From an uncultured Chloroflexia bacterium (lineage in GTDB: Bacteria > Chloroflexota > Limnocylindria > Limnocylindrales > CSP1-4), in assembly GCA_963749705.1 (NCBI GenBank), contig CAVVNQ010000006.1, positions 96,001-160,000 of the forward strand: a stretch of 64,000 nt of DNA, read 5' to 3'. Both the position numbers and the translations under genes were made by a program. Each line of letters starts with the position of its first letter. Position 1 is the stretch's first letter. Under the pieces are notes generated by a model. The model saw only the letters and a list, made by a program, of their open reading frames with translations, was not told the origin of the DNA and ran no database searches. This document shows positions 48,216 through 61,521 of the stretch, one piece after another.

Positions 48216-49700
48216 TCAGGCGACCCGGACGGGCTCCCGCGCCCGCTCCTCGATCGCACCGCCCAGGCGCGCGCGCACCCTCGCAGCGGCGGCGTGCGCC
48301 TGCGAGATGCAGTCGGGCAACCCCACGCCGCGGTACGAGGCACCGGTCGTGACGACCGCGGGCCAGGCGGTCATCGCCGCCTCGATGGCCGCGACGCGGT
48401 CGAGGTGGCCAACGGTGTACCTGGGCATGGCGCCCGCGTTCCGGAACACGCGCACCAGCGACGGCGGTCCTGCGATCCGGAGCGTGCGCTCAGCATCGGC
48501 GCGCGCGGCGGCCACCAGGTCCGCCTCGGGCAGCGAGGTCCACGCGCCCTCGTCGCGTACGAACATGCGCAGCAGTAGCGTCTCGGCGGGCGCCCGGTCG
48601 GGCCACTTCTCGGACGACCAGGTACACGCGGCGATCGCGCCGCCCTCGGTCGGCGGGACGAGATAGCCGTGGCCGACGATCGCGCGCCCCACGCTCGCTC
48701 GCGGATACGCGAGCGTGACCAAAATGCTGGTTCCGTGCGGGATCGTCCGCAGCACCCGCGAGGCGCCCGGGACCTCGTCATCGAGCAGCGCCGCCGCAGG
48801 TGGCGCCGGAGTGGCGAGGATCACCGCGTCGAAGCGGCCGGCCGTCCCGTCCGCGAACGTGGCGCTCACGCCCGCACCCGCACGCGCAAGGCTCCGGACC
48901 GCCAGGCCCGTCCGGATGTCCACCCCCGCCTCGGCCAGCGAGGTCGCGAGCACATCGATGAGCGTGTCCATGCCACCCCGGAGGCTCGCGAACACGCCCA
49001 GCGGCTTCGGCATCGGCCCTGGTCCGGCGATCGGCGCCGTCGCCGCGGCAGACCTCGCCGCGGCAGCCCTCGCTGCAGCTGCACGCCGCATCGCCCGGCC
49101 GTCGGCAAGCCCCGCGAGCAGCAGGCTCCGGTGGTCGCGCTCGGCGGCTCGCAGCTGGGGAACCACCGCGTCCAGGCTGAGCTCGTCGATCGGCGTCCCG
49201 TAGACGCCGCCGACCAGGGGCCCGGCCAGCCGGTCCACCAGCGCGTTCCCGAGACGGCGCCGCAGGAACGTGCCCACGGCGACGTCATCGTCATCGAGCA
49301 CGCGGCGCCAGGCGACATCCTTCGCCATCCGCGCCTTCTCGGGCCACGAGAACAGCCGCGTCCGCGCGAACGGCATTGCCCGCGTGGGCAGCACCAGGCC
49401 CAGCCCCTCGGGCATCGGGACCAGGTCGCCGCGGTGGCGGATGTAGACCGCCCGCGGGTTCCTCGTGCCCACCAGCGCGTCGGCCAGGCCGAGCTCGCGC
49501 GCCAGGGCGACGGCCGCGGGGCGCGTGGTCAGGAACGAGTCCGGGCCACGCTCGATCACCAGGCCCTCGACCCGCTCGGTCGACACCTTGCCCCCCAGCC
49601 GGTCGCCCGCCTCGACGAGCGTGACGGGGACACCGTCGCGGGCCAGCTCCCAGGCGGCGGCGAGCCCGGTGATCCCGCCACCGACGATGAGGACGCTCAT
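48216..49700 (-). CDS. hemG: HemY-type coproporphyrinogen/protoporphyrinogen oxidase (CgoX)
   Basis: GGGITGL, E...RLGGK, E.GPDSF, W.S.KWP.RAP, MP.Y.VGH and GVG.PDC motifs. Confidence 0.92.
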   Translation of the reverse strand: MSVLIVGGGITGLAAAWELARDGVPVTLVEAGDRLGGKVSTERVEGLVIERGPDSFLTTRPAAVALARELGLADALVGTRNPRAVYIRHRGDLVPMPEGLGLVLPTRAMPFARTRLFSWPEKARMAKDVAWRRVLDDDDVAVGTFLRRRLGNALVDRLAGPLVGGVYGTPIDELSLDAVVPQLRAAERDHRSLLLAGLADGRAMRRAAAARAAAARSAAATAPIAGPGPMPKPLGVFASLRGGMDTLIDVLATSLAEAGVDIRTGLAVRSLARAGAGVSATFADGTAGRFDAVILATPAPPAAALLDDEVPGASRVLRTIPHGTSILVTLAYPRASVGRAIVGHGYLVPPTEGGAIAACTWSSEKWPDRAPAETLLLRMFVRDEGAWTSLPEADLVAAARADAERTLRIAGPPSLVRVFRNAGAMPRYTVGHLDRVAAIEAAMTAWPAVVTTGASYRGVGLPDCISQAHAAAARVRARLGGAIEERAREPVRVA

Positions 49701-49728: not shown

Positions 49729-50958
49729 TCAGCCCGCAGCCGCCGCGGCGGCGGGGACGATCCCATACTGCGGGACGTTGCCCGACGGCACGTACGGGCA
49801 CAGCGGGTCGGCCTCGAGCGGATCGCCCGTCCACGCCCACGCGCGCGCCCGCGAGCCCCCGCAGATCCGCGCGTACTCGCACGCCCCGCAGCGACCCTTG
49901 AAGCCCTCGGGGTCTCGCAGGCCGCGCATCACCGGGTGGTCGCGATAGAGGTCGACGATGCTCGCCTCGCGAACGTTGCCCAGCGGGATCGGCAGGAAGC
50001 CCGACGGGTTGACCGTGCCGTCGTGGCTGATGAACACGATCCCGTTGCCGTCGCGGATGCCGAACCCGCGACCGACGGACGAGCCGGCGATCGCGTCCGC
50101 GTCCATCCCGTCGGCCTCCATCGCACGGACGGCGATCCGGCGGTAGTGCGTGGCCTCGGTCGTCTTGACCTGGAACGGCGCCGTCTTCGACAGCCCCCAC
50201 AGCCACTGGTTGAGCTTCTCCGACTCGCCCGGCGACACCTCGCGGAGCGCGGACCCGCGGCCGGTGGTGATCAGCATGAACAGCGCCCAGCGCAGGATGT
50301 CCATGCCCTTGAGCAGCTCGTAGATCGCCGGCAGGTCCGCCAGCGTCTCGTCGGTGACCAGCGTGTTGACCTGGATCGGCAGGCCCGCGGCGCGCGCCCA
50401 CCTCGCCGCCTGGAGCGTCTTGTCGAACGTGCCCGGGACCATCCGAAAGCCGTCGTGGCGCGCGGCGTCGGAGCCGTCGATCGAGAGCGAGATGTTCTGG
50501 ATCCCCGCGTCGCGCAGCGACTCCAGGACCGGCTGGGTCAGGAGCGGAGTGGCCGCAGGCGCGAGCGAGGCGCCGATCCCGCGCGCGGTGGCGGCGCGGA
50601 CGAGGTCGTGGAGGTCGGGGCGGTTGAGCGGGTCGCCGCCGGTGAACACGACGTGCGGGTAGGGGCGGCCGAACCCGGTGATGTCGTCGAGCAGGCGGTA
50701 CCCCTCCTCGGTCGTGAGCTCGAGCGGGTTCCGCTCGGCCTGCGCGGTGGCCCGGCAATGGCGGCAGGCGAGCCCGCAGGCGAGCGTCGTCTCCCAGTAC
50801 ACGAGCATCGGGGCCCGGGCGTAGACGTAGCCCTCGGCGCGAACGGCGCCCACGCCCGTGATGCCACCGGGATGGCCGCCAGGGTGCCCGCCGGGGTGTC
50901 CGCCCGGATGGCCATTTCCGGGGTGTCCGCCGGGTGCACGGTCCGTGATCGTCGTCAT
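49729..50958 (-). CDS. Radical SAM/SPASM protein (TIGR04053/AhbD-like) with N-terminal GHP repeats
   Basis: WETT.AC.LAC.HCRA, TGGDP, PSGF.P and C..CE....CGGSRARA....GD....DPLC motifs; five G-H-P repeats. Confidence 0.85.
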   Translation of the reverse strand: MTTITDRAPGGHPGNGHPGGHPGGHPGGHPGGITGVGAVRAEGYVYARAPMLVYWETTLACGLACRHCRATAQAERNPLELTTEEGYRLLDDITGFGRPYPHVVFTGGDPLNRPDLHDLVRAATARGIGASLAPAATPLLTQPVLESLRDAGIQNISLSIDGSDAARHDGFRMVPGTFDKTLQAARWARAAGLPIQVNTLVTDETLADLPAIYELLKGMDILRWALFMLITTGRGSALREVSPGESEKLNQWLWGLSKTAPFQVKTTEATHYRRIAVRAMEADGMDADAIAGSSVGRGFGIRDGNGIVFISHDGTVNPSGFLPIPLGNVREASIVDLYRDHPVMRGLRDPEGFKGRCGACEYARICGGSRARAWAWTGDPLEADPLCPYVPSGNVPQYGIVPAAAAAAG

Positions 50959-51905
50959 CGGATGTCTCCTCCGGCCGCCGCGGCGACCGTCTCGGGGGCC
51001 AGCGCCGCGGCGGCGAGATCGGCCAGCCCGGCGATGAATGTGGGGTCGGTGTTCATCGAGCGCGCCCGTTCGAGCCGGATGCCCGCCTCGCGGGCGACCG
51101 CCTGCGCCTCGATATCGATGTCGTAGAGCACCTCGAGGTGGTCGGCGACGAACCCGACCGGCCGGATCACGAGGTCGGTGACACCTTCGGCGGCCAGGCG
51201 CCGGATCTCGTCGAGGATGTCCGGCCCAAGCCACGGCTCGCCCGTCCGGCCGGCGCTCTGGAACGCGAAGTCGTAGCGCTCGAGGCCAAGCCGTTCCGCC
51301 ACCAGCCGGGCCGTACCCGCGAGCTCGTCGGGGTAGGGGTCGCCGTCGGCGAGGACGCGGGCGGGCAGGCTGTGCGCGGTGAACATGACCCGTACGGCGG
51401 ACGGGTCGTCGAACCGATCCAGCGCCTCGCGCGTGGTGCGCGCCATCGCCTCGATGAACCGCGGCTGGTCGTACCAGGAATCGACGTAGACGACCGCCGG
51501 AGCGCCATCGCCGAGCGAGGCCAGCGCCGCGTCGACCGCCCGGCGATACCCGGCGGCGTTGGACGACCTCTGGGGCGCCAGGGCGATGGCGACGAGGCGC
51601 TCGACACCGTCCGCCGCCATCCGCGCGACCACGTCGCCGATCCGGGGCTCGATGTGGCGCATCCCCGCGTACACCGGCATGGGCCGACCGCGCGCCGCCA
51701 GGTCCGCCTCGACCGCCGCTCGCTGCGCCTCGACGATCCGCGACAGCGGCGAACCGCCCCCGATGGCCCGGTAGCGGCCCAGGAGCTCCTCGAGCAGGTG
51801 CGGCGGCGGCGGGCTGCCGCGCCGGATGTCGGTGTAGTAGGCCTCCACCTGGTCGAGCCGGTCGGGGCTGCCATAGGCCATCAGCAGGACGGCGTCGTGG
51901 GTCAT
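50955..51905 (-). CDS. hemH: Coproporphyrin ferrochelatase (CpfC/HemH)
   Basis: LMAYGSP, RY..IGG.SPL, FTAHSLP, QSAG.T.EPWLGPD and GFVADHLEVLYDID motifs. Confidence 0.95.
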   Translation of the reverse strand: MTHDAVLLMAYGSPDRLDQVEAYYTDIRRGSPPPPHLLEELLGRYRAIGGGSPLSRIVEAQRAAVEADLAARGRPMPVYAGMRHIEPRIGDVVARMAADGVERLVAIALAPQRSSNAAGYRRAVDAALASLGDGAPAVVYVDSWYDQPRFIEAMARTTREALDRFDDPSAVRVMFTAHSLPARVLADGDPYPDELAGTARLVAERLGLERYDFAFQSAGRTGEPWLGPDILDEIRRLAAEGVTDLVIRPVGFVADHLEVLYDIDIEAQAVAREAGIRLERARSMNTDPTFIAGLADLAAAALAPETVAAAAGGDIR

Positions 51906-52981
51906 CGGGACGCTCCATGGTCGTGGACGAGGTCGACGAGGCGGGCGAGGTCGTCGGGATCGGTGCCCGGCAGGACGCCGTGTCCCAGGTTGAAGATGTG
52001 GCCCGGCCGGCCGTCGTTCTGGTCGAGGATCCAGCGGGCGCTCTCCTCGACGGCATCCCACGGGCCGAGCAGCAGGGTCGGGTCCAGGTTCCCCTGGACC
52101 GCGCGGTCGCCGACCAGCTCGCGCCCGTCATCGATGGCGATCCGCCAGTCGAGCCCGATCACGTCGCCGCCCGCTGCGGCCTGCTGGCGGAGGATCCCGG
52201 CCGTGCCGACGCCGAAGTGGATGATGGGCACGTCGAGCGGGGCGATGCCATCGAACAGGCGCCGCATCCACGGCGCGAGTCGGCGCTCGTAGTCGAGCGG
52301 GCTCAGGCCGCCGACCCAGGAATCGAACACCTGGACGGCCTCGGCGCCCGCGGCGACCTGCGCCGACAGGTACCGGATGGTGGTCTCGACCAGCTGGTCC
52401 AGCAGGGCAGCCCACGCCTCGGGGTTCTCGTGCATCAGCCGCTTGGTGTGCAGGAAGTCGCGCGACGGGCCGCCCTCGACGAGGTAGCACGCGAGCGTGA
52501 ACGGCGCCCCGGCGAACCCGATCAGCGGCACAGGTGATTCGGCGCGGACCAGACGGATCGCCTCGAGCAGGGCTGGGACCGCTGCCTCGGGCTGGAAGGT
52601 GCGAAGCGCCCGGACGTCCGCGATCGTGCGCACCGGGTGCTCGATGACCGGGCCGACGCCCTCCCGGATGTCGAACCCGACCCCCATCCCGGCGAGCGGC
52701 GTCGTGATGTCCGCGAACAGGATCGCGGCATCGACGCCCAGGCGCCGGACCGGCTGGAGCGTGACCTCGGCGCACAGGGCCGGGTCGCGGGTGATCTCGA
52801 GCAGGGTGGCCCGTTCGCGGACCTTGCGGTATTCGGGGAGGGCCCGGCCCGCCTGGCGCATGAACCACACCGGCGTTGCGTCCACGCGCTCGCTGCGGGC
52901 GGCGCGCAGGAACCGCGCATCCGGGCGAGGCTCGGGAGCCGGGGCGACGGGGAGCGGCCCTCGCAGCGCCTTCACGGTCAT
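51902..52981 (-). CDS. hemE: Uroporphyrinogen decarboxylase
   Basis: PVWFMRQAGR.LPEY, DAAILF.DI, GF.GAPFTL..Y, QGNLDP and NLGHGV motifs. Confidence 0.97.
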   Translation of the reverse strand: MTVKALRGPLPVAPAPEPRPDARFLRAARSERVDATPVWFMRQAGRALPEYRKVRERATLLEITRDPALCAEVTLQPVRRLGVDAAILFADITTPLAGMGVGFDIREGVGPVIEHPVRTIADVRALRTFQPEAAVPALLEAIRLVRAESPVPLIGFAGAPFTLACYLVEGGPSRDFLHTKRLMHENPEAWAALLDQLVETTIRYLSAQVAAGAEAVQVFDSWVGGLSPLDYERRLAPWMRRLFDGIAPLDVPIIHFGVGTAGILRQQAAAGGDVIGLDWRIAIDDGRELVGDRAVQGNLDPTLLLGPWDAVEESARWILDQNDGRPGHIFNLGHGVLPGTDPDDLARLVDLVHDHGASR

Positions 52982-54291
52982 GCCGCGAACGCCGCTCGGG
53001 CCGCGGCCAGCGTGTGCTCGACCTCGGTGTCGCCGTGCGCGACCGAGATGAACCAGGCCTCGAACTGCGACGGCGGGAGCAGGACGCCCTCGTCCAGCAT
53101 GGCGCCGAAGAACCGGGCATACGCGTCGCGGTCCGCGGCCAGCGCCTCGGCGGCGTTGCGCGGTGCCCCGTCACGGAAGAACACGGTGAGCAGCGACCCG
53201 ACGCGGGAGATCGCGACCTCGCGACGGGCGTCGGACGCGGCTTCGCGAAGCCCCGCCTCGAGCCTGGCGCCGGTGTCCTCGAGCCGTGCGTAGGCGGCGG
53301 GGGTCAGCAGGTCCAGGGTCGCGACGCCGGCGGCCATCGACAGCGGGTGCCCGCTCAGCGTGCCCGCCTGGTACACCGGACCCTCGGGGGCGATGTGGGC
53401 CATCAGGTCGGCCCGGCCGCCGTAGGCGCCGATGGGCATGCCACCACCGATGATCTTGCCCAGCGTGGTCAGGTCGGGCCTGATCCCGAACCGCTCCTGG
53501 GCACCGCCCCGGGCCATGCGGAACCCGGTGATCACCTCGTCGAAGATGAGCAGCGCGCCATTGGCGGTGGTCTGCTCGCGCAGGGCCTCGAGGAAGCCCG
53601 GTTCGGGGGCCAGGACGCCCACGTTGGCGCCGACCGGCTCGACGATGATCGCGGCGACCTGGTCCGGGTGGCTGCGGAACACCTCCGCGATCGCCGGGAT
53701 GTCGTTGTACGGGATCACGATCGTGTCCCGCGCGGCCGCGGCGGTGACCCCGGCCGAGCCCGGCATGGCGAGCGTGGCCAGCCCGGACCCCGCCTCGACG
53801 AGCAGGCTGTCGCCGTGGCCGTGGTAGCCACCCGCGAACTTGACGATGAGGTCGCGGCCGGTCGCCCCGCGCGCGAGCCGGATCGCGCTCATCACCGCCT
53901 CGGTGCCCGACGAGACGAACCGGAGCCGCTCCATCGACGGCATCGCCTCGCGGATCCGTTCGCCGAGCTGGACCTCGCGGGGTGACGTGGCGCCCAGCGC
54001 GAACCCGTCGAGCGCCGCGTCCACGACCGCCACGACGACCGATGGCTCCGCGTGACCCAGGATCCCGGGGCCCCACGAGCCGATGTAGTCGAGGTACCAG
54101 CGACCGTCCGCGTCGCGGACGCGGGGCCCCTCGCCGGCCTCGAGGACCAGCGGGGCCCGGCCGACCGAGCGGAACGCCCGGACCGGGCTGTTGACCCCGC
54201 CCGGGAACAGCGACTCGGCCCTGGCCCGCAGGTCGTCCTGGCGGCTGCCTGCGTTCGGCGAGGCCGATGGCGTCGGCGCGAAGGTCGTCAT
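52978..54291 (-). CDS. hemL: Glutamate-1-semialdehyde 2,1-aminomutase
   Basis: PGGVNSPVRAF, SSGTEA.M, YHGH.D, FDEVITGFR, GKIIGGG.P and YQAGT.SG motifs. Confidence 0.96.
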   Translation of the reverse strand: MTTFAPTPSASPNAGSRQDDLRARAESLFPGGVNSPVRAFRSVGRAPLVLEAGEGPRVRDADGRWYLDYIGSWGPGILGHAEPSVVVAVVDAALDGFALGATSPREVQLGERIREAMPSMERLRFVSSGTEAVMSAIRLARGATGRDLIVKFAGGYHGHGDSLLVEAGSGLATLAMPGSAGVTAAAARDTIVIPYNDIPAIAEVFRSHPDQVAAIIVEPVGANVGVLAPEPGFLEALREQTTANGALLIFDEVITGFRMARGGAQERFGIRPDLTTLGKIIGGGMPIGAYGGRADLMAHIAPEGPVYQAGTLSGHPLSMAAGVATLDLLTPAAYARLEDTGARLEAGLREAASDARREVAISRVGSLLTVFFRDGAPRNAAEALAADRDAYARFFGAMLDEGVLLPPSQFEAWFISVAHGDTEVEHTLAAARAAFAA

Positions 54292-54293
54292 GA

Positions 54294-55335
54294 TCAGGAC
54301 TCCCGGGACCAGGCCGCGAGGTCGCCGGCGGCATAGGTGATCACGAAGCCGGCACCGGCCCGCAGGATGGCGGTCGTGCTCTCGGTCAGGGCGCGGCGCC
54401 GGTCGAGCCAGCCGCGCTGCGGCGGCCGCTTCGATCGAGGCGTACTCCCCGCTCACCTGGTACGCCCCGATCGGGACGTCGAAGCGGCGCCGCGCCTCGG
54501 CCAGGATGTCGAGCGACGGCAGCGCCGGCTTGACCAGCAGCATGTCCGCACCCTCGGCGAGGTCGATCGCCATCTCGCGCATCGACTCCCGCCCGTTGGC
54601 CGGGTCCATCTGGTAGCCGCGCCGGTCCCCGAACGACGGGGTGGATCCTGCGGCGTCACGGAACGGGCCGTAGAACGCGGACGCCGTTTTCGCGGCGTAG
54701 GCGAGGATCGCCGTGTCGTGGTGCCCGACGGCGTCCAGCCCGCGACGGATCGCGGCAACCTGGCCGTCCATCATGCCGCTGGGCGCGACGATGTCGGCAC
54801 CCGCCTCGGCCTGCGAGGCGGCGGTCCGCGCGTACAGCTCGATCGTGGCGTCGTTGTCGACCCGTCCGTCGGCGAGCAGCGGGCCGCAGTGGCCATGATC
54901 CGTGTACTCGCACAGGCACGTGTCGGCGATCAGGACCATTTCGAGGTCCGCGTCGCGGAGCTGGCGCAGCGCCTCCTGGACGATCCCGTCGGCGACCCAG
55001 CCGCCGGTGCCCACGGCGTCCTTCCCGGCCGGGAGCCCGAACAGGATCAACCCGCCGACGCCCAACGCGGCTAGCGCGCGAGCGTCACGCACGGCCTCGT
55101 CAGGGGTCACGCGCTCCACGCCGGGCATCGAGCCGACCGGATCGCGGCGTCCGTGCCCGGGCTGGACGAACAACGGCGCGACCAGCTGCCGGGGATGGAT
55201 CCGCGTCTCGCGCACGAACGCGCGCAGGGCATCTGTTCTACGCGTGCGACGCAGCCGGTGGGCAGGATCCGGGACGGCTGCGGCGCCATCGGCGGGCAGA
55301 TCGGCGACGGCCGGCCGGTCGGCGATGAGGCTCAT
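54294..55335 (-). CDS. hemB: Porphobilinogen synthase (Zn-type), frameshifted near 54420
   Basis: CLCEYT.HGHC, APS.MMDG, S.FYGPFR.A, YQMD, VKP and YQVSGEY motifs; C-terminus GWLD...ES...I.RAGA..VITY.A in another frame, stop at 54294. Confidence 0.92.
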
Positions 55336-57098
55336 CGGGTTCCTCCGGGAGTGAGGCCGGTGGCGTACGCGACCGGCGGGACGAGGACAGCGGTGTGGGC
55401 GGTCAGCGGTTCGTCGCTCCCCGACACCCCGAGCGAGGCGGCGACGAACCCGGCGAGCTCGGCCGCTGCGGGCGACGGGGCGACGAGGACGGTGGTGAAG
55501 CCGAGCGAGCTCGCGGCCTCCGCGGTGGGCACGCCGATCGCCACGACCGGCGTCGCTCGCAGCCGCTCGTGCGTCTCGGGCGCCGAGGCCAGGGCGAGCA
55601 GCCCGCGCACGGTGGATCCGCTGGTGAGCACCAGGGCGTCGACCGGGCCGTCGTCGAGGGCGCCGGTGAGGAGCACCCGCGAGGCCTCCGGGCCCTCCAC
55701 GGTGCGGTAGGCGATCACCTCGGTGACCGTGGCGCCACGCGCCTCGAGGGCGTCCGGGAGCGCGGGGTCGGCGATGTCGGAGCGTGGCAGCACGACGTGG
55801 TCGCCGGCTGCGATGGGCAGCTCGCGGGCCAGCACTCGCGCACTCGCGGTCGACGGTCGGAACGCCACGCCGATCCCCGCAGCGCCGAGAACGGCGGCCG
55901 TGCCGTCGCCGATCGCACTCCATCGACGGTGGCGAGGATCGATCCCGCTCCGGATGACCGCTTCAACCGCGGCCACGGCGGCGTTGCGACTGGTGATCAC
56001 GAGCCAGTCGCCCGCCCCACCGCCGGCCAGCGCCTTGTCCAGCGCGCCGTCCGGCACGGCCGGCAGGATCTCGATGGCCGGGACGTTGACCGCGGCGACG
56101 CCCGCGTTGTCGAGCGCTGCCAGCAGCGGCTGCGCCTGGCCCGCCGCCCGGGCGACCAGCACCCGCGGAGCCCGGCGCAGCGTCACGATGCGTGCCGCGA
56201 GGCGCTCCGCCAGGGCGACGTGATCGACGGCGGGCGCCTCCCCACGGACGCGGACGACCGGGGACGGGGCGATCGGCGCATCGGGCGTCGGTGTCCATTC
56301 TCGTTCGGCAGCAGCCACCAGCCGGAGCCGCCCGCGCGAGACCGTCCCGATCGCGCCGATCGGCGACCGGCAGCCGCCGCCGGTCGCGTTGAGCAGCGCC
56401 CGCTCGGCCTCGACCGCCACCCGCGTCGCCGGGTCGTCGAGCCGCCCGACGGCCTCGATCGCACGGGCGTCGTCCGAACGCACCTGGATCGCGAGCGAGC
56501 CCTGGCCAGGAGCGGAGACGACATGGCTGGAGGGCAGGATCTCGTCGATACGGTCCGCGCGGCCGAGCCGCGTGAGGCCGGCGACCGCGAGCACCAGCGC
56601 ATCGCTGTCGCCACGATCCAGCTTGGCCAGCCGCGTGTCCACGTTCCCGTGCAGCGGGTGCATCTGCAGATCCGGGCGGAGCGCGTGGAGGAAGGCCGTG
56701 CGTCGCGGGCTGTCGGTGCCGACGCGCGCACCCTCGGACAGCGTGGCCAGGGTCGTCCCGCGGACGCGGCACACCAGCGCGTCGCGCGGATCCTCGCGCG
56801 GCGGATAGGCAGCGATCACCAGGCGCGCGTGCTCGTCCGTCGGCACGTCCTTCGCGCTGTGGACCGCGATGTCCACGGAACCGTCGAGCAGGGCGCCGAC
56901 GATCGCCCCCACGAACGCGCCCTCGCCCCACGCGGTGTCGACAGGTCGATCATCGCCCTCGGTCCGGATGATCACGAGCTCGGCCGGCACGCCGTCCTCG
57001 GCCAGCCGGGCGGCGACCCAGCGCGCCTGGACGAGCGCGAGCGGACTGCCACGGGTGCCGATGCGAAGCGGGACGGTCATCTCGGGATCCACGGGCAT
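55332..57098 (-). CDS. hemC: Fused hydroxymethylbilane synthase (HemC) / uroporphyrinogen-III synthase (HemD)
   Basis: GTRGS.LA..Q, AVHS.KD.P, GNVDTRL.KL and GGC..PIG, then in-frame HemD motifs ITS.NA, IG..TA, Y.T, TS.STV and IG..TA. Confidence 0.9.
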   Translation of the reverse strand: MPVDPEMTVPLRIGTRGSPLALVQARWVAARLAEDGVPAELVIIRTEGDDRPVDTAWGEGAFVGAIVGALLDGSVDIAVHSAKDVPTDEHARLVIAAYPPREDPRDALVCRVRGTTLATLSEGARVGTDSPRRTAFLHALRPDLQMHPLHGNVDTRLAKLDRGDSDALVLAVAGLTRLGRADRIDEILPSSHVVSAPGQGSLAIQVRSDDARAIEAVGRLDDPATRVAVEAERALLNATGGGCRSPIGAIGTVSRGRLRLVAAAEREWTPTPDAPIAPSPVVRVRGEAPAVDHVALAERLAARIVTLRRAPRVLVARAAGQAQPLLAALDNAGVAAVNVPAIEILPAVPDGALDKALAGGGAGDWLVITSRNAAVAAVEAVIRSGIDPRHRRWSAIGDGTAAVLGAAGIGVAFRPSTASARVLARELPIAAGDHVVLPRSDIADPALPDALEARGATVTEVIAYRTVEGPEASRVLLTGALDDGPVDALVLTSGSTVRGLLALASAPETHERLRATPVVAIGVPTAEAASSLGFTTVLVAPSPAAAELAGFVAASLGVSGSDEPLTAHTAVLVPPVAYATGLTPGGTR

Positions 57099-58317
57099 CA
57101 CAGCGAGAACAGGGCTCGGGCAGCACGTTCCAGGTCGCCGGTCGAGTCGTCGCGCAGCGTGGCCAGCGGGTCGTGCAGCAGGCCCGCCACCAGCCGATGG
57201 CTCATCTGCTCGACCAGCTCCCGCTGGTGGTCGGCGAGGTCGAGCCGACGGAACAGGCGATCCAGCTCCTCCAGCCGCCGCGTCTCCGCGCGGTCGCTCA
57301 GGGCCTGGATCGCCGGGACGCTGTTCCGCGTGGCGACCCACTGGCTGAACTTCGCCTCCGCGGCTTCCAGCACCCGCTCGAACCGCCGGCGGAGCCGCGC
57401 ACGCATCTCGTCGTGCGGGTTTCGGGCAAGGTCGTCGACCGACACGTGCCGCCCGGCGATCCTGGCGCGGAGGTCCGGGTCGAGCGCGGGCGGCGACGAC
57501 AGGTCGGCGACCGGAAGCTCGTTCGCGATGAGCGCGGAACGCGCCGCGGACGACAGCGGCCAGCGGGCACTGATCGCGACCACGACCGCGTCCACCTCCG
57601 GCAGCGGCTCATCCGATCCGAACGCCGCCGGCTCGCCGTTGACGTCATACGCCAGCGCCGCCGCTCGTTCGCTGCTGCGATTGGCGACCAGGACGTGGGC
57701 GCCCTGCCGTGACGCCGAGACGGCTGCCAGCCGGGCCATGCGTCCGGCACCGACGACGAGGACCTTGCGTCCGAGCAGCGGCCCGGTGAACGGGAGAAGG
57801 CGGTCGAGCGCAGCGTCGGCAAGCGAGCGCGGCGGACCTTCGCGCCACGAGCGCGTCTCGCGGCCAAGGTGGAGCGCGATCTGGAACAGGCGCTCGAGAG
57901 CCGGGTGCAGCCCGATGGCATGCGAGCTCGCCGAGCCGATCGGTTCGGGGCATCGTTCGGCGCCCGGAACACGACGATCGGAGAGGCACTCGCGCAGCTG
58001 GTGGAGGATCTGATCCTCGCCCACCACCACCGAATCGAGGCCCGCCGCCACCGTGAACAGGTGCCGGGCCGCGGCGGCCCCCTCGAGCCGGCGACCGCCG
58101 CGCGGCAGGGCAGGCAGGGGTGGCAACGGATGGCCATCGAGGGGTTCATCGACGACGTACAGCTCAGCGCGATGGCAGGTGCGAACGAGGATCGCGCGCG
58201 GATCATCGGCGATCGATGCGGCCGCAGCGGCGAACGCCTCGCGCTCGTCGCTCTCGACATGGCGCGCGTGGAGCACGAGGGCGACTGCAGACGCAGATCG
58301 GCGCGGGGATCGGTCAC
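57098..58317 (-). CDS. hemA: Glutamyl-tRNA reductase (probable frameshift near the 5' end)
   Basis: TCHR.E.Y, HLF.VA.GLDS.V.GE.QI..Q, VGAG.M, ANRS, D...P...DP and LLH.P motifs; GTG start at 58317 overlaps the upstream stop but is out of frame with the body. Confidence 0.88.
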
Positions 58318-59012
58318 GAAGGGCTCCCGGGATTGGGGTTGGATGCTCGACGCGAGCGTCGGCTGGCCCCCAGCGCCGCGGGCTCCCAGCCGCGAAGGGT
58401 TGCGAGCAGCAGGTCGTCGAGCGCCGTGTTGGCGTCCGTGAACAGCCTGGAGGTAGCGTCGGCATCGAACTCGCGCCGACGGGCGATCGCGCCCAGCTCG
58501 GCGATGAACGGGCGCCGGAAGCGCAGGAACAGGTCGGCCGTCGTTGCCGACCCGAGGCCCTCGCGTCCGGCGATCCGGCCGTACTCGGTGCAGGCGTCCT
58601 CCGCATCCCTGAGGAGCTCGCGCCGGCGGCGCTCATCGGAGGTGTCGAGCGCGGCAACGAGCGCCGTCACGATGCCGCGGCCGTACTGGCGAAAGCGCTC
58701 GCGACTCTCGTCGCTGAGCTCGGCGACCCACGGGATTCGGCTGGGCGTCTCGTCGGCCGCGCGACGGTAGCCCCGTGCCATCCGGCCCGGTGTCTCGCCA
58801 AGGGCGGTGAGCGACGGTCGACCGCTCGGCTGGTCCGGCAGCAATGCCTGGAGCCCGCCTCGCGAGAAGCGGCGGTGACCGCCCGGGGTCACGAATGTCC
58901 GAACCATGCCGCCGTCACCCCAGCGGCGCACCGTGGACGGCGAGACGCCGAGCAATCGGCAGGCCTCGGTGAGCGTGACCCAGTCGGGGTCGGCGGCTGC
59001 TCGGGCTCGCAT
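58314..59012 (-). CDS. Xis/BldC (MerR-like) HTH regulator with all-helical C-terminal domain; first gene of the heme operon
   Basis: WVTLTEACRLLGVSPSTVRRWGDGG...TPGGHRRF; about 150-aa helical C-terminus; stop overlaps the hemA start. Confidence 0.85.
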   Translation of the reverse strand: MRARAAADPDWVTLTEACRLLGVSPSTVRRWGDGGMVRTFVTPGGHRRFSRGGLQALLPDQPSGRPSLTALGETPGRMARGYRRAADETPSRIPWVAELSDESRERFRQYGRGIVTALVAALDTSDERRRRELLRDAEDACTEYGRIAGREGLGSATTADLFLRFRRPFIAELGAIARRREFDADATSRLFTDANTALDDLLLATLRGWEPAALGASRRSRRASNPNPGSPS

Positions 59013-59022
59013 CGGGGACGCA

Positions 59023-59065
59023 AAACCTCCCAAATCTACCAAACCTTCGCGGAAATCAAAGCATA
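59023..59065 (-). promoter_or_regulatory. Heme-operon promoter/leader with 9-bp head-to-tail direct repeats
   Basis: Plus strand AAACCTCCC, AAATCTACC, AAACCTTCG (59023-59049) and AAATC (59053); minus-strand -10-like TATGCT at 59060-59065; AT-rich island. Confidence 0.6.
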
Positions 59066-59317
59066 GTAGGTTTCCCTCGGGGGGGTATCGACAGGGCCGT
59101 CCGGTCCGCGTATGGCCCGCCGAAGGCACGGGTCGGCCGGGACTTCTCGCCGCTCGGTGATGAAATCGGTGGGCCACGCCGACGGCCCGGTTGGCCGCAA
59201 CGCGCTACCGTTGGCAGCCTCGGACCGCGGCCCGTAATCGCCGGTGTCGTTCGGCCCTCGGCCTCCCCGACCGGCAGGCGCACGACGTCGCTACCGGCTG
59301 CCATGCAGGAGCGTTCC

Positions 59318-59995
59318 ATGACCAGCCCCGATCCCAACAGCACGGTTCGCTACGCCGTGTGGGCCGTCTATGCACGCGTCGGGTCGCCGCCGGACGGGAC
59401 CGGTGCTGCGACCGAGCTCGAGGCGTGGGCCGCGGCACTCGCCGACGACGATGTCGTCCTCCGCGGCTGGTACGACGTCTCGGGCTTGCGCGCCGATGCC
59501 GACGTGATGCTCTGGCTCCACGGACCGAGCGCCGAATCCCTCCAGGCCGCGCTGCGCGGCTTTCGCCGGACGGCCGTCGGTGCGGCCACTGATATCGCGT
59601 TCTCGATGATGGGCACCCACCGACCGGCCGAGTTCAGCCGTGACCACGTGCCGTCGTTCATGCTCGGAACTCGTCCCCTCGGGTGGCTGTGCGTCTACCC
59701 CTTCGTCCGGTCATATGAGTGGTACCTGCTGCCCGACGACGAGCGGCGGGCGATGCTCGCCGAGCACGGCACGGCGGGCCGGGCATTTGCGCGCGTCCAG
59801 GCGAACACGGTCGCCGCCTTCGCTCTCAACGACTACGAGTGGATCCTGGCCCTCGAGTCTGACGATCTCCACGATCTCGTGGACCTCATGCGCGATCTCC
59901 GCTCCACGGGGGCGCGGCGGCATGTGCGCGAGGAGATCCCGTTCCACACCGGCCGGCGGATCGAGGCCGACGGGGTCATCGACGTCCTGCGGTGA
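59318..59995 (+). CDS. hemQ: Coproheme decarboxylase (ChdC/HemQ, chlorite dismutase family)
   Basis: RG.YDVSG.RADAD.M.W.H, HRPAEF.R.H.P.F, YPFVRSYEWYLL, M..EHG, F.L.DYEW.LA.E and HVREE.PF motifs. Confidence 0.92.
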   Translation: MTSPDPNSTVRYAVWAVYARVGSPPDGTGAATELEAWAAALADDDVVLRGWYDVSGLRADADVMLWLHGPSAESLQAALRGFRRTAVGAATDIAFSMMGTHRPAEFSRDHVPSFMLGTRPLGWLCVYPFVRSYEWYLLPDDERRAMLAEHGTAGRAFARVQANTVAAFALNDYEWILALESDDLHDLVDLMRDLRSTGARRHVREEIPFHTGRRIEADGVIDVLR

Positions 59996-60039
59996 CCAGC
60001 AACCACGACGCCATCCTCCTGGTCTCGTTCGGCGGGCCA
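59992..60039 (+). pseudogene. 16-codon N-terminal remnant of an actinobacterial-type ferrochelatase
   Basis: GTG overlapping the chdC stop encodes MTSNHDAILLVSFGGP; similarity then ends abruptly. Confidence 0.6.
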
Positions 60040-60066
60040 CCCCCGAGTGGTCGACCCCCCGGGGCG

Positions 60067-61521
60067 CTACTCGCCCGTGTTGATCGTGATGTGCTTGACG
60101 AACGTGTAGTCCTCGAGCGCGTACTTGGAGCCGTCCTTGCCGTAGCCCGATTCCTTCACGCCGCCGTGGGGGGTCTCGGACGACAGCGTGAAGTGCTCGT
60201 TGATCCACACGGTGCCGTACTGCAGCCGACGCGCGACGCGCATCGCCTTGCCGATGCTGCCGGTGAACACCGACGACGCGAGGCCGAACTTGACGTCGTT
60301 CGCCCACTGGACGGCCTGCTCCTCGTCGGAGAACCGCTGGACCGTGACGACCGGGCCGAACACCTCGTCCTGGACGATCTCACTGCCCTGGTCCGGGTTG
60401 GCGATGACCGTGGGCTCGAAGTAGGCGCCCGGCCGATCCGGCCGGTGCCCACCAAGCACCAGCTCGGCCTTGGCCTCGAGCGCTCGATTGACCATGCCCT
60501 CGACCTTATCGGCCTGCGCCTGCGCGATGAGCGAGCCCATGTCGAGGTCGTCGGCGTCGGCGGGGTTGCCCCACTTGATCGTCTTCACCTGGTCGGCGAG
60601 CGCCGCGATGAGCGGCTCGTAGACCTTCGGCCCGGCGATCACGCGGCAGGCCGCGGTGCAGTCCTGGCCGCTGTTCCAGTAGCCGGCCGACTTGAGGATC
60701 TCGGCCGCGAGGTCGACATCGGCGTCGTCGAACACGATCACGGGCGCCTTGCCACCCAGCTCGAGATGGAGCTTCTTGACCGTGCCGGCCGCCAGCTCCG
60801 CGATGTGCTTGCCGGTCACGGTGTCGCCCGTGATCGAGACCATGCGCACCTTCGGGTGGGACACCAGGAAGTCGCCCATCGCGCCGCCCGAGCCCGCCAG
60901 GACGTTGAGCACGCCCGCCGGCAGCTGGTCCGCGATCAGCTCGGCGAACCGGAGCGCCGACAGCGGCGTCCGCGCCGACGGCTTGAGCACGACCGTGTTG
61001 CCCGTCGCGAGCGCGGGCCCGAGCTTCCAGGCCGCCATGTACAGCGGGTAGTTCCAGGGCGCGATCGAGGCCACGACGCCGATCGGGTCGCGGCGGATCA
61101 TCGAGGTGTGGCCGTCGAGGTACTCCGTGACCGCGAGCCCCTCGGGGATGCGGCAGGCGCCGGCGAAGAACCGGAACAGGTCGCTCGAGGTGGCCATCTC
61201 GTCGATGGCGGCCGCGGTCGGCTTTCCCGTCTGGCTCGACTCCAGCCGGCCGAGCTCGTCGCCGTTGGCGTCGAGGATGTCGGCGATCCTGAGCAGCGCG
61301 AGGCTGCGCGTCTGGGGCGTGGTCAGCGACCAGCTCTCGAACGCGTCCGCGGCGGCGTCGACGGCGCGGTTGACGTCCTCCAGGCCTGATGCGGGGACCG
61401 TGGCGACGACCTCGCCCGAGGCGGGGTTCTCGACATCGAGCGTCGCTCCTGAGACGGCGTCCACCCACTGGCCGCCGATGAACTGCTGGTACGACTTGAC
61501 GGGGTTGAGGGTCTCGGTCAC
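60067..61521 (-). CDS. Gamma-aminobutyraldehyde dehydrogenase-type aldehyde dehydrogenase
   Basis: PWNYP, ELGGKAP, NSGQDCTAA, EVFGP and PHGG.K.SG.GKD motifs; GGAGG RBS before GTG 61521. Confidence 0.9.
   Translation of the reverse strand: MTETLNPVKSYQQFIGGQWVDAVSGATLDVENPASGEVVATVPASGLEDVNRAVDAAADAFESWSLTTPQTRSLALLRIADILDANGDELGRLESSQTGKPTAAAIDEMATSSDLFRFFAGACRIPEGLAVTEYLDGHTSMIRRDPIGVVASIAPWNYPLYMAAWKLGPALATGNTVVLKPSARTPLSALRFAELIADQLPAGVLNVLAGSGGAMGDFLVSHPKVRMVSITGDTVTGKHIAELAAGTVKKLHLELGGKAPVIVFDDADVDLAAEILKSAGYWNSGQDCTAACRVIAGPKVYEPLIAALADQVKTIKWGNPADADDLDMGSLIAQAQADKVEGMVNRALEAKAELVLGGHRPDRPGAYFEPTVIANPDQGSEIVQDEVFGPVVTVQRFSDEEQAVQWANDVKFGLASSVFTGSIGKAMRVARRLQYGTVWINEHFTLSSETPHGGVKESGYGKDGSKYALEDYTFVKHITINTGE

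Follow-up and report, generated by a model that had tools for sequence, protein, structure and literature searches.

Repression from direct repeats and the sensing of a tetrapyrrole (B12) are combined in the CarH/LitR proteins, and Irr, Rex and HrtR are known regulators of the heme pathway. In the available part of a 2024 review on how Gram-positive-type bacteria regulate heme synthesis, HrrSA/ChrSA, DtxR, PerR, SpxA1 and HemX are given as known regulators; the review deals with two-component, iron and peroxide regulators, considers that more probably await discovery, and in that part names neither a regulator of the kind described here nor any for Chloroflexota (PMC10991733). For the DNA-binding half of the protein, the closest described system is BldC, which binds 9-bp AATT-X4-C repeats head to tail in either orientation and needs R30, G44 and H46 to do so, according to the accessible text of PMC5859096. 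Globin-type sensors also occur with DNA-binding domains. The available text on photoglobin places it with HTH_17/MerR domains, too, in proteins that carry B12 domains (PMC8717448), and MabR (Rv2242) is described as a globin-GGDEF-like-PucR HTH protein that is largely limited to Actinomycetia (PMC11617747, part available).

The regulator gene, its operon and its relatives

The window is the whole stretch of DNA that was analysed, 64,000 nucleotides from one contig of an uncultured Chloroflexia bacterium. It contains a minus-strand open reading frame of 232 codons, running from an ATG at 59012 to a stop at 58314, which is followed by the genes of heme synthesis:

58314..59012, minus strand: regulator gene, 232 aa, BldC/Xis-type winged HTH plus predicted globin-fold C-terminal domain (from the ORF, domain matches and a model)
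58839..58982, minus strand: HTH domain, aa 11-58, with the BldC-equivalent R30, G44 and H46
58368..58823, minus strand: predicted non-heme globin-sensor-like domain, aa 64-215, dimer predicted via the last two helices
57098..58317, minus strand: hemA (glutamyl-tRNA reductase), GTG start overlapping the regulator stop; frameshift near the start, C22 copy intact
55332..57095, minus strand: hemCD fusion, start approximate
54306..55335, minus strand: hemB, frameshift near 54420 as assembled
52978..54310, minus strand: hemL, start approximate
51902..52981, minus strand: hemE
50955..51905, minus strand: hemH / coproporphyrin ferrochelatase
49729..50958, minus strand: TIGR04053 radical SAM/SPASM protein, AhbD-like, below the AhbD cut-off
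48216..49700, minus strand: hemY
59303..59995, plus strand: chdC/hemQ, divergent (HemQ_actino 321 bits, cut-off 235); control by the operator only putative

The first-pass annotation had placed the regulator at the head of hemA-hemCD-hemB-hemL-hemE-hemH-radical SAM-hemY. Domain and family profile matches bear out this order, and orthology shows that the reported overlap of the regulator stop with the hemA start (GTGA) is right. As assembled, hemA is frameshifted near its start, with 28 nt missing relative to the copy in a near-duplicate of the region on contig C22, in which both hemA and hemB are intact; the hemA and hemB frameshifts in the window are likely assembly errors, although no DNA contig from the sequencing runs spans the hemA junction. 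The divergent chdC is indeed present next to the regulator, but the divergent arrangement is not conserved and so lends no support to co-control of chdC, and the repeats described below lie about 250 nt from its start. An Rfam scan of positions 57500-60500 gave no match.

The N-terminal HTH matches PF12728 HTH_17 (E 3e-7) and PF00376 MerR. These matches, with homology and structural likeness to BldC, agree with the excisionase/BldC type first assigned to it, at a score of 41 bits against NF033787 HTH_BldC that is below the 77-bit cut-off of this model. R29, G44 and H46 are invariant across 131 homologues, and R30 is retained in only 18 of the 39 out-of-class homologues. Outside the HTH, the regulator has no Pfam match, and none of the curated NCBIfam models reaches beyond the HTH. 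No long helix follows the HTH in the AlphaFold2 model, so the coiled-coil dimer that marks classical MerR activators is not seen there.

The C-terminal domain was found in 121 of the 151 genomes of the host class, and matches to the full profile occur, mostly in single copy, in 136 of 301 Chloroflexota genomes; these genomes are related, so the counts overstate independence. The class-genome tallies of the regulator, hemA and the exact motif include the unpublished G087, G106 and G123, and the conclusions are independent of them. All of the taxon-bearing matches seen are from Chloroflexota, bar one weak partial match. Homologues in named genomes of Chloroflexus, Oscillochloris and Chloroploca are 55-100% identical to the member from the phototroph family, and those of Anaerolineae about 35% identical to it. 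Open-literature searches, with subscription journals and regulon databases (RegPrecise) outside their scope, gave no description of the family; it is widespread in Chloroflexota and apparently undescribed.

Within the host class, 80 loci fall into four neighbourhoods. The regulator precedes hemA (or chdC) in neighbourhood A and adjoins M20 peptidases in B and C, and a second paralogue stands ahead of unknown genes in D; B, C and D are each a supported group in a quick tree that sampled 27 of their 56 rows. Out of class, hemA and the gene are at most 5 kb apart in 32 of 86 genomes, from 17 of 23 families, among the matches listed (the 86 are the genomes with both genes among these matches, and 17 further genomes are without a listed hemA position). 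Linkage of homologues to hem genes thus extends through the phylum, in those 17 of 23 out-of-class families, but does not hold for clades B, C and D with their peptidase or unknown neighbours. Among 40 loci spread by hand, the gene directly adjacent encodes a tetrapyrrole enzyme at 20 and a PucC-type transporter at 7, and one or the other type of gene lies within 5 kb in 30 (the regulator ORF was uncalled at three of the 40 loci, and labels come from one representative per cluster). Genes of the chdC route and of the siroheme route (cysG-N, ahbAB, AhbD-like radical SAM) are both represented among the neighbours.

The two genes do not always occur together. Family f4 has the regulator in 41 of 50 genomes and a hemA found in 22 of 50, and the near-complete G137, G008, G050 and G089 likewise keep the regulator without a detected hemA; hemA is present with no regulator match in several families (for example none of 13 genomes in f9 and none of 12 in f18). 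Longer or fused forms number two among 8000 candidates. One is extended at its N-terminus, and the other, running into HemA, is probably a frameshift read-through; such scarcity is weak evidence against other architectures. A mobile-element excisionase was also considered and, as far as tested, rejected, the gene being mostly single-copy in chromosomal neighbourhoods, with clades that largely track host families in the quick tree.

The C-terminal domain

The AlphaFold2 model has a pLDDT of 89.7 at full length and 90.4 for the C-terminal domain alone. Foldseek against the PDB gave no match at E <=0.001 for either the full model or the domain, and the globin fold call rests on structural alignment with VIA-align. 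The best match is pXO2-61 (Z 12.3, rmsd 2.7, 132 of 132 residues aligned), followed by MtR (10.2), BpeGReg (9.3), RsbR-N (9.0), MabR-N (8.9), DosC (8.8) and AfGcHK (8.8); all of the top 14 rows are globin-fold, with the caveat that a Z under about 13 between helical proteins may be mere common arrangement. The query is without a match to RsbRD_N, which matches weakly in 9 of 72 members (best E 0.0016), and one relative carries a precomputed PF14361. A PDB sequence search with the domain profile returned nothing relevant, and B12-binding Pfam domains occur neither in the query nor in the families listed for the 72 members. The globin/RsbRD-N-like fold proposed at first reading therefore gains from the VIA-align matches to globin sensors and from the weak RsbRD_N matches, and we predict that the domain has a non-heme globin-sensor fold.

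Two copies of the domain are predicted to pair, with a score of 0.72 against 0.00 for the best control and a mark that is reached by 20 of 30 solved pairs and by 1 of 23 single chains. The runs agree in at least 86% of contacts, with pLDDT of at least 79. Heme was present in these runs but outside the score, and the pass may reflect resemblance to solved globin dimers. Since the predicted interface includes D199, L202 and L163, some of the conserved residues may be structural.

The C-terminal domain had been described as free of DxHxxG and His, with two YG motifs and a Cys. This is accurate: the only His of the protein is H46, in the HTH, the YG pairs are at 110-111 and 144-145, and the Cys is Cys141. 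The prominence given to the Cys and the first Tyr does not survive comparison, because Cys141 is found in 5 and Y110 in 3 of the 27 hem-linked homologues. Conservation over 131 homologues falls on G111 (98%), R166 (97%), D199, G152, R108, R104, F162, W95, Y144 and F165. Y144 occurs in 22 of 27, 19 of 19, 20 of 20, 8 of 9 and 32 of 39 members of the hem-associated groups, with His in its place in 7, and is absent from the second-paralogue clade D (0 of 17), where W95 and F165 are lost too. The F-helix region has no conserved His, position 148 being A, L, S, M or T in the tabulated residues. By eye, G145-x-x-A148-x-x-x-G152-L153 has the spacing of G-x-x-H-x-x-x-G-L in the protoglobin alignment, and in this register Ala148 appears to occupy the proximal His position, with Tyr144 one turn before it. 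Profile-profile alignment (hhalign) against 18 Chloroflexota protoglobin domains gave a probability of 0.4%, which is no support for such a His-F8 register.

The repeats at the regulator promoter and at unlinked hemA promoters

The promoter region of the regulator in the window contains the following elements:

59023..59049, minus strand: predicted operator, three direct repeats of period 9 with cores AGGTTT / AGATTT / AGGTTT, in the 5' leader
59053..59058, minus strand: degenerate fourth repeat, TGATTT
59063..59068, minus strand: likely -10 element TACTAT, inferred from orthologues that have TAnnnT 15-16 nt before the first repeat
59068..59073, plus strand: inverted half-site, AGGTTT, abutting the -10

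The three tandem 9-bp repeats noticed at first reading are present at 59023-59049, as AAACCTCCC (59023-31), AAATCTACC (59032-40) and AAACCTTCG (59041-49), and overlap a GGAGG Shine-Dalgarno-like sequence. The -10 had been placed at TATGCT (59065-60); TACTAT (59068-63) is likelier because of the spacing in same-genus orthologues. A consensus promoter scan found no promoter at the regulator, and a generic repeat finder missed the three operator repeats. The tandem pattern has two matches in the window, both at the operator, against a mean of 0.03 in shuffled sequences, none of 100 of which reaches two. Throughout the genome of the host, the operator scores 26.5 bits and the next site outside the C22 duplicate 18.8, and only these two copies exceed 19 bits.

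The repeats are conserved in Chloroflexota: a core AGRTTT with a period of 9-10 stands ahead of homologous genes phylum-wide. The host genus has a period of 9, and most lineages one of 10. Neither of the genomic findings that were to refute the annotation, homologues unlinked to hem genes and unconserved repeats, holds for the family as a whole. When one mismatch is allowed, the tandem RGRTTY-N3/4-RGRTTY is found ahead of the gene in 20 of 27 loci of neighbourhood A, 11 of 20 of B, 5 of 19 of C and 14 of 17 of D (shuffles 1-3%; one locus skipped and one mis-anchored), a count that is circular because the pattern was derived from the same regions. Many clade C genes lack their own promoter and are coupled to the gene upstream. 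Out of class, a site of at least 12 bits lies ahead of the regulator at 22 of 39 loci (0.3 expected, 2 on the other strand), and the own promoters of the other 17 score below 12 bits. By hand count, the exact motif has 96 matches in the 151 class genomes against 14 for a backwards control. Among own promoters, TAnnnT lies 8-35 nt upstream of the site in 51 of 81 scored loci (a count with no control).

Promoters distant from the regulator were scored with a matrix made from its own upstream regions only, in 40 of the roughly 54 available f3/f4 genomes in which hemA is unlinked. Sites of at least 15 bits are found at 22 of the 40 hemA promoters, with 0.1 expected from shuffles and none of 40 inside the gene; the other 18 promoters are below 15 bits. 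All 22 sites are inverted relative to hemA, which argues for a DNA operator and against an RNA motif, a reading rejected for this reason. Three of the 40 genomes are without a regulator match: the site at hemA is strong in G144 (88% complete), weak in G094 and absent from G042 (95% complete; -0.8 bits). Out-of-class hemA loci carry sites of 10.8-22.5 bits within 200 nt in 7 of 10 cases, scored with no shuffle control (one of these loci is 3 kb from the regulator, and two of the three without a site are internal operon genes).

The position of the inverted sites is constrained. Of the 37 loci with an inverted score of at least 5, 28 have a TTG 8-10 nt beyond the site, where shuffled sequences give 1.3, and 27 have TAnnnT 30-35 nt beyond it, where they give 1.0. 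The f3/f4 hemA site is upstream of the -35, at about -45 to -64, with an additional half-site over the -35 box in f4, and at the out-of-class hemA promoters L285 and L289 the site is downstream of the -10. The predicted operators are thus direct repeats after the -10 or before the -35, unlike the palindromic MerR operator in a 19-20 bp spacer. Further high-scoring sites are found at parA promoters in three f3 genomes, ahead of a 69-aa membrane ORF at five f4 loci and ahead of a DUF4491 pair in two f15 genomes; those at parA and the small membrane-protein genes are lineage-limited. Ten hemA-less genomes have 24 one-mismatch matches against 8 in the control, four of them at the gene's own promoter, and no alternative target is common to families.

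A model of control and its place among known systems

The regulator probably binds the AGRTTT repeats and controls hem genes, acting as a repressor in the window. It would be a transcription factor of the one-component type, conserved throughout Chloroflexota, that acts on tetrapyrrole (heme) synthesis. Its conserved residues and the repeat period suggest that the HTH domains bind head to tail on AGRTTT repeats spaced 9-10 bp, as BldC does, and the globin-fold domains are predicted to form a two-fold dimer. Because the repeats occupy the first ~35 transcribed bases and cover the ribosome-binding site, binding should repress, and the regulator would be silenced together with the coupled hemA-to-hemY operon. 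The autoregulatory repressor proposed in the annotation suits the window, where the site comes just after the -10; in two families the hemA site is upstream of the -35, so this role may not hold everywhere. A tetrapyrrole, either the end-product or an intermediate (heme b or coproheme), may then enter a His-less pocket with W95, Y144, F165 and Arg residues and alter DNA binding, which would give feedback control.

This choice of ligand is the weakest step, and we hold it tentatively, as a near-probable guess. It draws on the regulon, the fold family, the conserved aromatic and Arg residues, the Tyr/His exchange at position 144 and the fact that clade D has lost W95, Y144 and F165; against it are the heme-free nearest folds, the absence of His and the retention of the gene in genomes with no hemA found. 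There is also a substantial chance that the ligand is a different small molecule, or that there is none. The fullest version, a phylum-wide feedback sensor whose His-less globin binds heme or coproheme via Tyr144 and conserved Arg and so switches a BldC-type filament, is possible but rather doubtful. Such a filament would act as a repressor on the leader, and perhaps as an activator when it forms upstream of the -35. The regulator accompanies both the chdC and the siroheme/ahb route, and coproheme is an intermediate of both.

The same regulator and operator could also work with a globin domain whose input is not a tetrapyrrole (but a partner protein, a redox or energy signal, or a fatty acid or acyl-CoA) or that only dimerises, and this is a serious possibility, if short of probable. 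The pXO1-118 family binds a fatty acid, the best fold matches (pXO2-61, MtR, RsbR-N, MabR-N) are heme-free, part of the residue conservation may reflect the predicted dimer interface, and the protein persists in genomes without a detectable hemA. MabR-N is described, in the part of the paper available, as having no heme-chelating residues and an effector yet to be identified (PMC11617747). Such a ligand sits less easily with the sole target that recurs across classes, which is tetrapyrrole synthesis or PucC-type transport, and with pocket-side W95, Y144 and F165, which the hem-associated clades keep and clade D has lost; heme- and bilin-binding globins also score nearly as high as the heme-free ones (BpeGReg 9.3, DosC 8.8, AfGcHK 8.8).

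As to mode of action, a protein that represses its own promoter and activates unlinked hemA from -45 to -64 would explain the fixed orientation and the constant spacing of 8-10 nt from the -35 TTG at 28 of 37 loci, and BldC is known both as a repressor and as an activator (accessible text of PMC6428758). Yet BldC also acts as a repressor of whiI, where its inverted site lies at -50 to -80 (PMC5859096, available part), the f4 half-site overlaps the -35 box, and the site follows the -10 in the window and at the L285 and L289 hemA promoters; the cis arrangement would be at odds with activation of hemA, and we find such an activating or dual role unlikely. The high-scoring sites at parA, the 69-aa membrane ORF and the DUF4491 pair, and again the genomes that keep the regulator without a detectable hemA, might point to a broader BldC-like or nucleoid-type protein with hem genes as just one target. 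This is quite unlikely given that sites above 19 bits in the host's own genome are confined to the operator and its duplicate, and that the ten hemA-less genomes have few one-mismatch matches and no target shared across families. It is very improbable that the repeats are a promoter feature or another protein's site and that the gene merely travels with hem operons. AT-rich tracts are conspicuous in 70% GC DNA, but the motif tracks the regulator into four unrelated neighbourhoods, matches the repeat geometry of the HTH family, survives dinucleotide shuffling controls and is missing at hemA of G042, the single case of its kind, where the regulator was not found.

In the available part of a 2022 proteomic study of Chloroflexus aurantiacus, the regulation of its scattered photosynthesis genes is called unclear (PMC9316378). 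The family supplies a protein, a predicted operator and target promoters in the cultivable Chloroflexus and Oscillochloris, which makes the question directly testable, and offers a system where the regulon allows a guess at what a non-heme globin sensor binds. If true, the feedback-sensor model would be a new way of reading the tetrapyrrole level, would give a ligand to an RsbRD-type "non-heme" globin and would make the protein a candidate for controlling the tetrapyrrole supply of phototrophic Chloroflexus.

Among described proteins, Streptomyces BldC (PDB 6AMA/6AMK) has an HTH homologous to that of the regulator (E 1e-12; Z 7.5, rmsd 1.8, 52 aligned). R30, G44 and H46 are kept in the window, and the BldC repeat at smeA, GATTTCCCC, resembles the motif (PMC5859096, accessible text). 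As far as the available descriptions go, BldC consists of a 68-residue HTH, lacks an effector domain and has a large regulon of developmental genes, whereas the regulator adds a ~150-aa domain of predicted globin fold and has a narrow predicted regulon. With its effector domain and 41 against 77 bits for NF033787, it is outside the BldC family proper. CarH/LitR and the MerR-B12 proteins of Chloroflexota and Acidobacteria (PDB 5C8D, 8JBS) likewise join a MerR-like HTH to a sensor domain, but the regulator has neither B12 domains nor DxHxxG, its predicted fold is globin instead of a helical bundle plus Rossmann fold, and its predicted targets are hem genes where theirs are carotenoid genes.

The predicted fold of the C-terminal domain, its lack of a proximal His and its predicted dimerisation via the last two helices are shared with pXO2-61/HisK_N, RsbR-N/MtR and the RsbRD_N domain of MabR. 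Identity to these non-heme globin sensors is 11-16%, and the domain differs from them in following a BldC-type HTH in the chain; the combination of non-heme globin and HTH in MabR has another architecture. The globin-coupled sensors HemAT, DosC, AfGcHK and BpeGReg have the same overall fold (Z 7.9-9.3), and the regulator differs in having no conserved His in the F-helix region. Photoglobin and the photocobilins share the fold too, with B12 domains that are absent from the regulator. HrrSA/ChrSA, DtxR, PerR, SpxA1, HemX, Irr, Rex and HrtR also control hemA or hem operons, partly through heme feedback, and differ from the window regulator in fold and phylum.

Paralogues and distribution of the regulator

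Three loci carry two divergent regulator paralogues each, placed back to back (L103, L099 and L113, in Chloroflexota genomes G005, G038 and G125), and in each pair one paralogue leads hemA while the other leads chdC. The genes of a second paralogue clade, clade D (L074-L092), keep the predicted operator, have lost W95, Y144 and F165, and precede a gene of about 360 aa of no known function. Clade D paralogues are present in genomes where hemA was not detected, and they possibly have a different ligand or none. In family f2, neither the regulator (0/6) nor hemA (0/6) was found in six genomes of 1.0-1.4 Mb. The same is true of genera g9 and g10, and in genus g4 the two genes occur together in only one of nine genomes.

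Genes of the heme operon and their neighbors

The window features concerned are the following:
57098-58317, window copy of HemA
58270-58300, frameshift in hemA
about 54420, frameshift in hemB
50958-50860, minus strand, five G-H-P-G repeats opening the TIGR04053 radical SAM protein

HemA is divergent in the host class, window copy included, with GlutR_N E-values of 1e-16 to 1e-29; among the matches listed, those of most other Chloroflexota are 1e-40 or better. The window copy and its class homologues read TCHR at the catalytic Cys motif. Both hemA and hemB are intact in the near-duplicate region on contig C22 of the same genome, which is 96.6% identical to the window over 11.9 kb, with further blocks at 91.7-99.9%. 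Strain mixture or assembly error probably accounts for this. A 389-aa metagenome protein (P0272) has the regulator joined to the N-terminus of HemA, probably through frameshift read-through. The G-H-P-G repeats might form a metal- or heme-binding tail. PucC-type MFS transporters (PF03209) are neighbors of the regulator and of hemA alike (L150, L161, L169, L283 and L288), in family f11 as well, where they stand beside ChuX/HutX and tetrapyrrole methylase genes. These transporters are candidate porphyrin or heme exporters.

The motif at promoters other than those of hem genes

In family f3 genomes (L252, L255, L259), the direct-repeat motif lies ahead of parA-parB, between a -10-like element and a parS-like palindrome. 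Two f15 genomes (L265, L276) have an exact site with a -10-like TATACT on one side and two paired DUF4491 membrane genes on the other. In family f4 (L228, L232, L233, L238, L347), strong sites stand ahead of a two-helix membrane ORF of 69-100 aa near parAB; at four of these loci they score 28-33 bits. This ORF has no meaningful match in Pfam, and it may resemble the N-terminus of actinobacterial CtaF.
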